Below, piece after piece: positions 11,201 through 14,086 of a stretch of 26,369 bases of DNA. Made by a program: the position numbers and the translations under genes. Source of the DNA: a virus (lineage: Duplodnaviria; Heunggongvirae; Uroviricota; Caudoviricetes); IMG/VR virus record IMGVR_UViG_2660238444_000003, positions 1-26,369 of that record. The stretch is one strand, 5' to 3'. The notes beneath the pieces were generated by a model. It ran no database searches. It was not told where the DNA came from and saw only the letters and a list, made by a program, of their open reading frames with translations. How positions within the stretch are numbered: position 1 is the first letter of the stretch; each line of letters opens with the position of its first letter.

Positions 11201-11473
11201 TTACCTCGCCGTCAGTTGTTTTGATTTCCGGTAGCCTGCCGCGTAAATAGCTACGTTTGGCAGGCAAATACTTCCACTGCATTCATCTGCCTTCTTGCAG
11301 CGAAGGCTTCCGAGTGATGCTGCTTTATCTGCTCTGACGCAACCAGAGAGCTTTAGCGCAATTTTTCGCGCCAGTCGCTGCTCTTGCATTGCCTGTTCAC
11401 GTTGAGCCTGTCTGCGTGCTCTGCGGCGATTTCTGGCGTTATCGTCAGCCAGATATGTAATGACTACTGTCAT
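11201..11473 (-). CDS. N: N-like transcription antitermination protein (P22 gene 24 type)
   Basis: 90 aa from MTVVITYLADDNARNRRRARRQAQREQAMQ...; arginine-rich motif near the N-terminus as in lambda N (MDAQTRRRERRAEKQAQWKAAN); GGAGGTCAAC precedes the ATG. Confidence 0.78.
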   Translation of the reverse strand: MTVVITYLADDNARNRRRARRQAQREQAMQEQRLARKIALKLSGCVRADKAASLGSLRCKKADECSGSICLPNVAIYAAGYRKSKQLTAR

Positions 11474-11528
11474 GTTGACCTCCGATGAAACAACTTTGGA
11501 ATTGATAGTGATTGCAAAGTGGTTTCTG

Positions 11529-11547
11529 GCCCCTCGAACTGAGGGGC
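11529..11547 (-). promoter_or_regulatory. GC-rich hairpin in the N leader, about 55 nt upstream of the N start
   Basis: gcccctc / gaggggc stem with 5-nt loop; no U-run on either strand, so not a canonical intrinsic terminator; position recalls the processed hairpin in the lambda N leader. Confidence 0.35.
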
Positions 11548-12034
11548 AGAAAGAGCATCTCGCCACCTAATAGGTCAATGCTCGGATCGAGAGATTTAAT
11601 TAACCTCGGTTTTGAAGTTATGCATTCACATAAATCCTCCTGTTGCATGTGCAGCATTGGCTGTGTTTGGCGGCTGCATTTCGCCTATGGAATTGACTTT
11701 GGCGGTGACGCGCCGGGTGCTTATCTTCCGGTTGCCGTCGTGCAGCTGCACTTCACGTCACCCCAAAGCCAACTACTCTTTGACTCACACTCTCGCAGTG
11801 AGCGCGCCCATGCCATTGAGTCTCTGCCGCTTCATCGCCGCTGATAACCGGTGCGCGTCTGGCATTCGTGCTGCTTTACCGGAGCTACTTTTAATATATT
11901 GACCTTAACCCGATGCTAAGCAGGCTCGCTCAATGACGACTCAGGGCAGTATCATTACTGCTGCATTGCCTTTCGGCTGCGGTCTAACCGCGTTAGTGCA
12001 CCATTACGGCACCTCCTGTTTGGTTAAACTCAGT

Positions 12035-12075
12035 TCCCGCATTTCGGCGGGACAATCCCATCAATGTTAAAGAGC
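12035..12075 (-). promoter_or_regulatory. nutL (boxA GCTCTTTAAC plus boxB hairpin TCCCGCCGAAATGCGGGA)
   Basis: Minus-strand reading gives GCTCTTTAAC-15 nt-TCCCGCCGAAATGCGGGA; the boxB 18-mer is identical to the one after cro (nutR), and boxA matches CGCTCTT-type boxA. Confidence 0.7.
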
Positions 12076-12123
12076 CTGCCAATCTGTTCCGTTTGGCTTC
12101 CAGCGTCCTGCTGATGGCTAAAG

Positions 12124-12164
12124 AATACTGTAGGTATTTTATTGTGTAAATACCCAAGGTATTT
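12124..12164. promoter_or_regulatory. OL operator region (two palindromic repressor sites) overlapping the leftward early promoter
   Basis: aatacTGTAGgtatt (12124..12138) and aaataccCAAggtattt (12148..12164): AATAC...GTATT half-sites, same motif as at OR; located between the rex-position gene and nutL. Confidence 0.6.
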
Positions 12165-12295
12165 GTTTTTGGTGAAATAATGATAAACAAATGAATACAA
12201 AGGATATTTATTTTTTTCGGTGTCTGCTTGTTCAGTGCTTTTTATGCGGGATATGTGAAGTGGATCCCGATAGCTATTGCTGCCGGGATTATAGG

Positions 12296-12664
12296 TTAGT
12301 CAGCGAAGGTTAAGACGAGAATTACCTTAATGATGTCTGCTACAACAGACACGGCCATAGATAAACCAAAGACGATCCAAGCCACAGTGATGTCTTCACT
12401 ACCATCGTATAGAGTTCCGTAATCACTGGTGTAAGGCGTAAATGTCGCGCCTTGATACAATAGGTATAAGCTTGATCCATAGAGGATAAATGCAGATATC
12501 CCTTGTATTGCTATGATCACAAGAATCATGAAACGAGCTGATCTATGCGCCCAAGCCTGGCTTATTTTTTCTGATAGAGATTTCGCAATAAAAGCATGCG
12601 CTAAGCCGTAAATTGTCGAGATTGCCAACATCCCAAAAAAGCTTGCTATAGCGGTTCCAACCAT
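12296..12664 (-). CDS. Small multi-pass membrane protein in the rex position (candidate superinfection-exclusion / abortive-infection protein)
   Basis: 122 aa from ATG at 12664 (AAGGGG 6 nt upstream); several long hydrophobic stretches (e.g. FMILVIIAIQGISAFILYG, VAWIVFGLSMAVSVVADIIKVILVL); immediately downstream of cI on the same strand, between cI and OL. Confidence 0.6.
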   Translation of the reverse strand: MVGTAIASFFGMLAISTIYGLAHAFIAKSLSEKISQAWAHRSARFMILVIIAIQGISAFILYGSSLYLLYQGATFTPYTSDYGTLYDGSEDITVAWIVFGLSMAVSVVADIIKVILVLTFAD

Positions 12665-12681
12665 AAGCGCCCCTTGCGTGA

Positions 12682-13398
12682 TCAAACCAGCCTTAGTTTT
12701 GTCTCAATTGCAACGCCTATAATCTTGCAGTTTCCATTGATTGGCACGAGAGGCCATGCAGGATTAAGTCCCTTGAGGTATTTATTTCCGCCGTCGATTA
12801 TCAGCTTCTTGAATGTTGCTTCGTTAGAGTCAGAAAGTTTTGCTATGACCAAGCTGCCGTTGATCGCCTCCCTTCCGGTATCGAAAAGAACGAATGTTCC
12901 CTCTGGAATGCTTAACCCAACCGGTGCCGTCATTGAATCACCTTCCACTTTAAGCCAGAACGCATTACCTTGAATATGCGCGTCAGACTCAAGCCAAACA
13001 TCTATGTCTTTAATGGTGTATGGTTCGCATGCTTCACACCACGAGCCAGCCTGGATACTGCTTAACACCGGATACCTCTTTCCTGCTCTGTATTCCCCTG
13101 CATACCTTACGTTGGCATCGCTCTTAAGGCTTTCTGCCTGTTCTGCAACCTTGGCAGCAATTGACTGGCTAAAATCAGCAATTGAGACTTGCAACAGTCG
13201 TGCAAAACCAGATGCAACCTCAACGTTTAGCGCGTTTCTGCCATTAAGATAATGCCCTACCGCTCCTTGGGTGATACCCAGTTCATCAGCGATTGAGTAT
13301 TGGGTTATTCCCAATTCTTTCTTTTTTGACTCATACAAAGCCTTAAGCCGCTTAGCGTCTTCGAGCTGTTCTGTCGTCAGTGATTTTTTATTTTCCAT
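12682..13398 (-). CDS. cI: CI-type prophage repressor (HTH plus S24 autopeptidase domain)
   Basis: 238 aa; LTTEQLEDAKRLKALYESKKKELGITQ..., AG cleavage site (IQAGSW), FWLKVEGDSMTAP and FKKLI catalytic motifs; very similar in layout to lambda CI as recalled. Confidence 0.9.
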   Translation of the reverse strand: MENKKSLTTEQLEDAKRLKALYESKKKELGITQYSIADELGITQGAVGHYLNGRNALNVEVASGFARLLQVSIADFSQSIAAKVAEQAESLKSDANVRYAGEYRAGKRYPVLSSIQAGSWCEACEPYTIKDIDVWLESDAHIQGNAFWLKVEGDSMTAPVGLSIPEGTFVLFDTGREAINGSLVIAKLSDSNEATFKKLIIDGGNKYLKGLNPAWPLVPINGNCKIIGVAIETKLRLV

Positions 13399-13433
13399 AG
13401 CTTAATTCTAATAGCTAAGGTACTTAAACTAAA

Positions 13434-13474
13434 AATACCCTGAGTATTGATTGCTTTGAATACCTGTAGTATTC
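13434..13474. promoter_or_regulatory. OR operator region (palindromic repressor sites) with divergent PRM/PR promoters
   Basis: aatacCCTGAgtatt (13434..13448) and perfect 17-bp palindrome gaatacCTGTAgtattc (13458..13474) between the cI start and cro. Confidence 0.65.
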
Positions 13475-13504
13475 TTTGTTCATGGTTAATAACGGAGAGT
13501 GCAT

Positions 13505-13699
13505 ATGATTCGAATGACACTTGCCGATTACGCCAAAATCCATGGACAGGCTAAAGCAGCCAGTGACTTTGGTGTAATCCAGTGCGCTATCAGCAAGGCC
13601 ATTCTGGCAGGTCGTAACATTATGGTTACGGTAAAGCCTGATGGCAGTGTGATTGGAGAGGAAGTTCGTCCTTTCCCAAGCAACAAGAAAAACAAATAG
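13505..13699 (+). CDS. cro: Cro repressor
   Basis: [62 protein letters not shown] resembles lambda Cro ([59 protein letters not shown]); GGAG 7 nt upstream of the ATG at 13505. Confidence 0.85.
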
Positions 13700-13807: not shown

Positions 13808-14086
13808 ATGCAACTTACAAGTACTCGCAAGAAAGCGAATGCAATTACAAGCAACATCCTGAATCGAATTGCTGTACGTGGTCAGCGAAAGGTTGCCGAC
13901 GCGTTAGGGATTAATGAATCGCAAATTTCGCGATGGAAAGACAGCTTCATCCCAAAAATGGGAATGCTTCTTGCTGTTCTTGAATGGGGTGTTGAAGACG
14001 AGGAGTTGGCGGAACTGGCTAAGAAAGTAGCCAGAATGCTGACAAAAGAAAAAGCCCCGAAGAACGGCGAATTCTTCGAGGCCTGA
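13808..14086 (+). CDS. cII: CII transcriptional activator
   Basis: 92 aa; ...NESQISRWKDSFIPKMGMLLAVLEWGVEDEELAELAKKVARMLT matches lambda CII (DKSQISRWKRDWIPKFSMLLAVLEWGVVDDDMARLARQVAAILT). Confidence 0.85.
   Translation: MQLTSTRKKANAITSNILNRIAVRGQRKVADALGINESQISRWKDSFIPKMGMLLAVLEWGVEDEELAELAKKVARMLTKEKAPKNGEFFEA

Follow-up and report, generated by a model that had tools for sequence, protein, structure and literature searches.

In lambdoid phages generally, the slot between the repressor gene cI and the antiterminator gene N has been noted as an accessory-gene site (PMC8585504), and several of its occupants, namely RexAB, Hex, 933W Stk, and BstA, are expressed with the repressor and exclude other phages (PMC3564112; PMC8585504). 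We analyzed this slot in a 26,369-nucleotide (nt) stretch of DNA, positions 1 to 26,369 of the caudoviricete record IMGVR_UViG_2660238444_000003 in IMG/VR (hereafter, the window). The window is a lambdoid prophage, and its integration site is a tRNA gene immediately downstream of proB/proA. Here, the position of rexA/rexB in lambda is taken by hkaS, which is the sole open reading frame (ORF) supported as coding in the interval from cI to the left operator OL. hkaS is best filed as a sequence-orphan accessory membrane protein gene of the prophage repressor operon, with no relative of known function. As a tentative reading, we propose that its product, HkaS, may be a prophage-expressed inner-membrane exclusion protein against superinfecting phages.

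Like lambda rexB, hkaS lies in the slot between cI and OL on the same strand as cI, presumably on the transcript from the promoter PRM, and its predicted product is a small polytopic inner-membrane protein with no soluble domain. A RexB-like mode of action, in which HkaS would be a latent inner-membrane channel or pore that opens on infection, collapses the membrane potential, and aborts the phage cycle, is nevertheless unlikely. RexB requires the cytoplasmic sensor RexA, whereas no RexA-like partner, nor any other second gene, accompanies hkaS between cI and OL, and the cytoplasmic part of HkaS is predicted to be a 17-residue loop only, with nothing larger to sense infection. RexB has 144 amino acids (aa) and four helices, whereas HkaS has 122 aa and three; hhalign comparison of the two gave a probability of 0.7%, and Pfam, PHROG, and PADLOC provided no link between them. 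The first-pass annotation of this DNA had suggested either a single-gene superinfection-exclusion protein or a membrane-depolarizing one. Because HkaS has neither a sensor partner nor a cytoplasmic domain, the depolarizing, RexB-like version is the weaker half of that proposal.

P22 SieA, which is expressed from the prophage, is an inner-membrane protein of ~160 aa predicted to have three transmembrane (TM) helices; it acts alone and blocks DNA delivery (PMC10883804). HkaS is comparable in kind, but sieA lies in the immI region under its own promoter rather than behind the repressor, and SieA has a soluble loop of ~50 residues. The targets of SieA are the ejection proteins of P22-like phages; hkaS, by contrast, occurs in phages with different types of virion. 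Comparison of HkaS with SieA by hhalign, for which only the P22 type was used, gave a probability of 0.3%.

In phage 434, hex lies immediately downstream of a related 434/P22-type cI, is co-transcribed with it from PRM as determined by reverse transcription PCR, and encodes an envelope-directed product linked to heterologous exclusion of P22 (PMC3564112). Hex consists of a soluble body behind an N-terminal signal peptide, whereas HkaS is predicted to be a bundle of membrane helices, and profile comparison of the two gave a probability of 0.1%. As a separate observation, 434 Hex (OL657226; locus L174, 1447-1851, plus strand; 134 aa as annotated) starts with MIRIAALLSILLTTSANSE/CW, which resembles a Sec signal peptide, suggesting that Hex is probably periplasmic. 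A periplasmic location would be hard to square with the published model of a cytoplasmic block to RecA-stimulated cI cleavage (PMC3564112).

BstA, found in BTP1 and other prophages, is likewise encoded directly downstream of the prophage repressor and acts as a single-gene defense expressed in the lysogen (PMC8585504), but it is a large cytoplasmic protein that localizes to phage DNA, is accompanied by an anti-BstA DNA element, and bears no resemblance to HkaS. The likeness to class I holins such as lambda S105 is one of topology only (~105-120 aa, three TM helices, and the N-out/C-in orientation predicted for HkaS): HkaS has no charged cytoplasmic C-terminal tail, its gene is in the lysogenic cI operon rather than in a lysis cassette, and no holin family in Pfam or PHROG matched it.

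Searches of Pfam, NCBIfam, and PDB sequences with HkaS returned nothing significant; a Pfam match to TssN scored 14 bits against a cut-off of 30 and was taken as noise arising from hydrophobic composition. No PHROG besides 6534 matched at E ≤ 0.01, PADLOC-DB v2 yielded no match at E ≤ 1 for HkaS of the window or for a divergent homologue (locus L156), and fold searches with the HkaS model found generic helical bundles only. Because sequence, profile, and fold searches were all negative, HkaS is placed by these comparisons outside all known exclusion and defense families, and its likeness to the systems described above is one of kind, not of descent. A relation to known exclusion proteins, for which the first-pass annotation had looked to profile comparison, was not borne out.

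Gene identity and protein architecture

The gene, its junction with cI, and the repressor gene are arranged in the window as follows.

12296-12664, minus strand: hkaS coding sequence, 122 aa plus stop
12665-12685, minus strand: cI-hkaS junction, holding a TTG codon (12685-12683) and the Shine-Dalgarno sequence AAGGGG (12675-12670)
12682-13398, minus strand: cI repressor, 238 aa, with HTH_3 and Peptidase_S24 domains

The ORF at 12296-12685 (minus strand) comprises 129 codons if read from the TTG, which overlaps the cI stop codon (TGA, 12682-12684). Reading from an in-frame ATG at 12664 instead yields a protein of 122 aa and leaves 17 nt between the cI stop and the start codon, and the Shine-Dalgarno sequence lies 5 nt upstream of this ATG. 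The profile of PHROG 6534, a family of unknown function with 122 positions, matched with E = 2.9e-79, and its positions 1-122 aligned to residues 8-129 of the TTG reading. The HK620 record (AF335538) contains a 369-nt hkaS 17 nt after cI, labelled "unknown", whose product is 97.6% identical to the window protein. In the Salmonella lineage, an in-frame TAA immediately precedes the hkaS ATG, so the seven-residue extension from TTG is not conserved, and the other lineages retain a Shine-Dalgarno sequence and an ATG 17-20 nt past cI. On the basis of the ribosome-binding site, the extent of the PHROG profile, the HK620 annotation, and the Salmonella TAA, the 129-aa TTG reading was dropped, and we assign the ATG at 12664 as the real start. 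The first-pass annotation had given 122-129 aa and a start close to or overlapping the cI stop; the overlap applies to the TTG codon, and the assigned start is 17 nt away and gives the shorter product. hkaS is not new as an ORF, since it is already annotated, uncharacterized, in HK620.

HkaS contains three hydrophobic stretches of ~26-30 residues each (19-residue Kyte-Doolittle means of 1.6-2.3), has a grand average of hydropathy of 0.98, and includes no soluble domain. Hydropathy analysis predicted TM helices at approximately residues 3-27, 45-70, and 93-120. An AlphaFold2 model, built on seven sequences only, had a mean predicted local distance difference test score of 92 and a predicted template modeling score of 0.79, with helices at residues 2-29, 31-38, 41-73, and 89-121. 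The short helix at 31-38 is amphipathic and lies in the cytoplasmic loop, and the periplasmic loop contains a small beta-hairpin. Hydropathy and modeling together strongly support the prediction that the 122-aa hkaS product is integral to the inner membrane and has three helices, in keeping with its first description as a small multi-pass membrane protein lacking a soluble domain.

Loop 1 (residues 28-44) carries three to five lysine or arginine residues (+3 to +5) in 9/9 lineages compared, whereas loop 2 (residues 71-92), which is rich in tyrosine, carries 0-1 lysine or arginine and 2-4 acidic residues in the same number of lineages. By the positive-inside rule, a basic loop 1 and an acidic loop 2 predict that the N-terminus is periplasmic and the C-terminus is cytoplasmic.

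Thirty-three columns of HkaS are invariant among lineages that are 51-61% identical to the window protein (~48% between some pairs). Among them are the intramembrane polar residues Q54, D110, and K113. A loop motif, K-x-x-Q-x-W-x-H-x-x-A-R-F, is conserved, and a C-terminal L-T-x-A is invariant; the window protein ends in LVLTFAD.

Linkage to cI and selective constraint

The HkaS family, as collected by a second profile search, comprises 35 clusters at 90% identity, all unannotated, all at least 51% identical to the window protein, and 121-122 aa long save for a few frameshifted or truncated entries. The source names given for the homologues include E. coli, Salmonella, Hafnia, Citrobacter, Enterobacter, Klebsiella aerogenes, Raoultella, and Cronobacter. 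An exhaustive hidden Markov model search of 1.84 billion representative proteins recovered only the HkaS family itself, with one full-length cluster at 50% identity, and no hkaS copy was found in a scan of GTDB species-representative genomes. As judged from these searches, the family is small and limited to gut Enterobacteriaceae and Hafnia.

Searches of 5426 complete E. coli genomes, in which the hkaS query included the 3′ end of cI, found hkaS and its cI each in 146 genomes (~2.7%), at 147 places, with a LexA-family gene under every match listed. Carriers in E. coli include Stx-converting prophages and Shiga toxin-producing E. coli O111:H8. In 16/16 phage records, hkaS was located directly behind a 238-aa cI with HTH_3 and S24 domains and before OL, the promoter pL, and N. 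The position of hkaS was examined in loci from five named genera (E. coli, Salmonella, Hafnia, Enterobacter, and Citrobacter) and in two loci of Klebsiella and Cronobacter type, and the named homologues take the family to about eight genera. All loci inspected had the order cro, 238-aa cI, hkaS, OL/pL/nut, and N, with a gap of 17-20 nt between cI and hkaS. The modules flanking cI-hkaS varied: the antiterminators were of N_peptide or N36 type, cII or YdaT was present, and the replication genes were O/P, DnaB, or IstB. hkaS was found across virion types, including P22-like podoviruses, lambda-like siphoviruses, and Stx phages.

hkaS was present in every locus examined whose cI was 84-100% identical to that of the window. 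Behind cI relatives at 76-78% identity, the slot held other cargo: a 141-aa ORF together with an antitoxin of the MqsA family, a 434 Hex homologue, or an acidic 131-aa protein. Over long time-scales, the slot therefore appears, from these comparisons, to behave as an accessory-gene site. Two of the alternative occupants are described here in their own right. The 141-aa ORF is followed by a 205-aa MqsA-family antitoxin (PF15731, E = 8e-19) behind a 76%-identity cI in loci L162, L167, L168, L169, and L172; this toxin-antitoxin-like pair in the rexAB position spans ~3334-4386 in L167 and had no PADLOC match. The Hex homologue (34% identity; locus L160, 3248-3634, minus strand) is downstream of a 76%-identity cI relative but on the opposite strand, in convergent orientation.

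hkaS was intact in 80/80 copies fetched from IMG/VR, with a complete cI upstream in 79 and the 80th at a contig end. In this sample, nucleotide diversity at synonymous sites (piS) was 0.027 for hkaS versus 0.026 for cI, whereas the ratio of nonsynonymous to synonymous diversity (piN/piS) was 0.26 versus 0.014. Twenty-two HkaS residues were variable, chiefly as conservative singletons. Codons 93-94 (window 12385-12390), at the periplasmic end of the third TM helix, were dimorphic, encoding Thr-Val or Ser-Met at 43:37 among the 80 copies; apart from this dimorphism, the amino-acid variants were all rare. Between lineages, the ratio of nonsynonymous to synonymous divergence (dN/dS) was 0.07-0.20 for hkaS and 0.02-0.04 for cI, and dN of hkaS was 3-10 times that of cI. 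These results strongly support the conclusion that hkaS is a genuine gene under purifying selection, several-fold less constrained than cI.

It is accordingly very improbable that hkaS is a functionless hitch-hiking ORF kept by its position in the immunity module. Its lack of a known function and its constraint below that on cI would fit such an origin, but every one of the 80 copies is intact, lineages saturated at synonymous sites all keep a length of 121-122 aa, dN/dS is 0.07-0.2, the 33 invariant columns include charged intramembrane residues, and the Shine-Dalgarno sequence is retained in every lineage.

The divergences of cI and HkaS were correlated (Pearson r = 0.77), with pairs in which cI was 99.6% and HkaS 86.9% identical, and others at 86-89% for cI and 48-61% for HkaS. 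HkaS might be a modulator of the lysogenic switch or of induction, as proposed for 434 Hex, RexA, and RexB, which stabilizes lysogeny or couples the state of the envelope to induction. The strict and old linkage to a single cI lineage, 1:1 in the 146 E. coli genomes, and the correlated divergences speak for this role, as does the precedent of Hex, which occupies the same position in 434 and is a "repressor protection protein" reported to lower spontaneous induction (PMC3564112). We nonetheless regard it as improbable: a membrane-buried HkaS would have little surface with which to contact cI or RecA, the linkage is trivially explained by a 17-nt gap inside a recombining module, and a cI that is near-invariant while HkaS varies freely, as in the 99.6% versus 86.9% pair, argues against a tight fit between the two proteins.

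In one pair of loci, L008 and L175, dS was 0.11 for cI and 0.35 for hkaS. This difference points to a breakpoint of recombination close to or at the cI-hkaS junction in one or more lineages, although the linkage is otherwise strict.

Immunity region and transcription signals

The segments of the immunity region follow the order cro (plus), OR, cI (minus), hkaS (minus), hairpin, OL-pL, nutL, and N (minus), with OL/pL forming the left limit of the slot behind cI. hkaS lies directly behind cI and before OL/pL, so its placement in the rexAB slot by the first-pass annotation holds. The other features of the window are as follows.

157-2612: proB/proA
2727-2799: tRNA gene at the integration site
2817-4043, minus strand: integrase
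11201-11566, minus strand: N
~12033-12076, minus strand: nutL, separated from N by a long leader
~12115-12186, minus strand: operators OL1-OL3 and pL, with -35 TTTACA at 12150 and -10 TATTCT ending at 12122
12183-12213, minus strand: tIMM-equivalent position, coordinates transferred from the HK620 annotation (+/-1 nt)
13505-13699, plus strand: cro, 64 aa from ATG, divergent partner in the same immunity module
13808-14086, plus strand: cII

The early region of the prophage is a mosaic of mEpX2-, HK542-, HK620-, and IME10-like segments. Positions 12033-13450 are 98.6-99.5% identical to the immunity regions of HK620, HK630, HK140, mEpX2, HF4s, phi296/phi367, and two Stx2c phages. Position 12033, within nutL, is the left mosaic boundary common to the HK620-immunity phages (HK620, HK140, HK630, and mEpX2), and in CUS-3 this boundary has been named the "bsq5 boundary sequence". 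The linkage of hkaS to cI follows from its location inside this exchangeable immunity module, whose boundaries lie at nutL and beyond cro. To the left of the boundary, ~250 bp (window ~11783-12032, from the N leader to nutL) are missing from HK140 and HK620 but present in mEp213, Hafnia phage yong1, and two Stx2c phages; with this extra sequence between nutL and N, the N start is ~470-560 nt downstream of nutL.

A simple sigma-70 scan of 11900-13600 detected no promoter-like site between cI and hkaS, with pL being the only one, and no internal hkaS promoter resembling PLIT of rexB. Because hkaS lies 17 nt downstream of cI within the immunity module, its expression is most probably from the cI transcript, initiated at PRM in the lysogen and at PRE during establishment. 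The cI-hkaS operon is probably among the most highly expressed prophage operons. Taken together, the slot, the membrane nature of the product, and its probable co-expression with cI hold, and the first-pass interpretation as a whole is partly supported.

A stable RNA hairpin at 12264-12289 (minus strand) begins 9 nt past the hkaS stop (-13.7 kcal/mol, z = -3.3) and has no U tract. In 9/9 lineages (the window and loci L004, L008, L010, L156, L175, L177, L179, and L181), a GC-rich hairpin of differing sequence was present 9-22 nt past the hkaS stop (-12 to -18.5 kcal/mol), again without a U tract. This conserved placement suggests that the hairpin probably marks where the cI-hkaS transcript ends or else stabilizes that transcript. 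The tIMM-equivalent position, farther from the hkaS stop, contained no convincing hairpin or terminator, and the immunity transcript may in fact end at the conserved hairpin and not at the tIMM of the HK620 annotation. A 40-codon cysteine-rich ORF at 12191-12313 (plus strand), antisense to the 3′ end of hkaS and the hairpin, was unsupported by any search and is probably spurious.

Possible roles of HkaS in the lysogen

An exclusion or abortive-infection role is suggested by the precedents for the slot and by a protein that appears to be wholly embedded in the membrane. HkaS consists of membrane helices and two short loops only; with almost no soluble surface, it must act on partners located within or next to the inner membrane. 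If HkaS is an exclusion protein, it would be made in the lysogen together with cI, reside in the inner membrane, and hamper heteroimmune superinfecting phages at the step of DNA entry. It could do so by disturbing the ejection or tape-measure conduit of the incoming phage, or by masking an inner-membrane host factor that the incoming phage needs. Q54, D110/K113, and the conserved cytoplasmic loop might then form an interaction or oligomerization surface. A block to DNA entry is our best guess as to mechanism, as the best fit among the precedents, given by SieA, to which HkaS has no homology. T4 Imm and HK97 gp15 likewise block DNA entry at the inner membrane and have no homology to HkaS. The faster evolution of hkaS than of cI may also be counted here, as it is often seen in accessory proteins that act at interfaces.

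A role unrelated to phages, in which HkaS would be a host lysogenic-conversion factor acting in bacteriocin immunity, transporter modulation, or envelope-stress tolerance, is doubtful. The small inner-membrane immunity proteins of pore-forming colicins have a similar size and three-TM architecture, expression from the repressor operon would suit any function that benefits the lysogen, and the family is limited to gut Enterobacteriaceae and Hafnia. On the other hand, HkaS matched no Pfam colicin-immunity family or other family at E ≤ 0.1, no bacteriocin gene lies nearby, and the known occupants of the slot are mainly anti-phage.

Several observations weigh against exclusion. HkaS showed no similarity in sequence or fold to any exclusion or defense protein in our searches, and the searchable literature on hkaS, PHROG 6534, and exclusion by HK620, HK140, HK630, or mEpX2 yielded no experiment on the gene. 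Co-transcription of cI and hkaS is itself deduced from sequence. There was no signal of diversifying or positive selection on hkaS (piN/piS of 0.26, dN/dS ≤ 0.2, and conservative variants). The gene travels with cI and not with virion type, so HkaS is not adapted to a single injection apparatus. Its tie to one cI lineage is invariable and old, with synonymous sites saturated between lineages; such stability differs from the rapid turnover typical of defense cargo and could point to a role in the immunity switch.

This stability can be read in another way, which we consider distinctly unlikely: HkaS would be an integral third component of the cro-cI module that works with no sensor, either as a self-contained trigger-and-pore abortive-infection device or as a link between the state of the inner membrane and the maintenance or induction of the prophage that encodes it. 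In the trigger-and-pore version, HkaS would sense the membrane insertion of incoming phage proteins. A third component of this kind would explain why hkaS has stayed with one repressor lineage across Enterobacteriaceae, over a time too long for synonymous sites to register, while all flanking modules (N type, cII or YdaT, replication genes, and virion type) have been exchanged.

The exclusion reading, which we tentatively favor, is cheap to test, as HkaS has 122 aa and a confident structural model, and HK620, HK140, HK630, and mEpX2 are available as model phages. hkaS is widespread in E. coli prophages and present in related prophages of Salmonella, Klebsiella, Enterobacter, Citrobacter, Cronobacter, and Hafnia. 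If HkaS does exclude phages, it would be a sequence-orphan, single-gene membrane defense unseen by current defense-finder tools, with consequences for phage-therapy host range and for prophage competition in gut enterobacteria.
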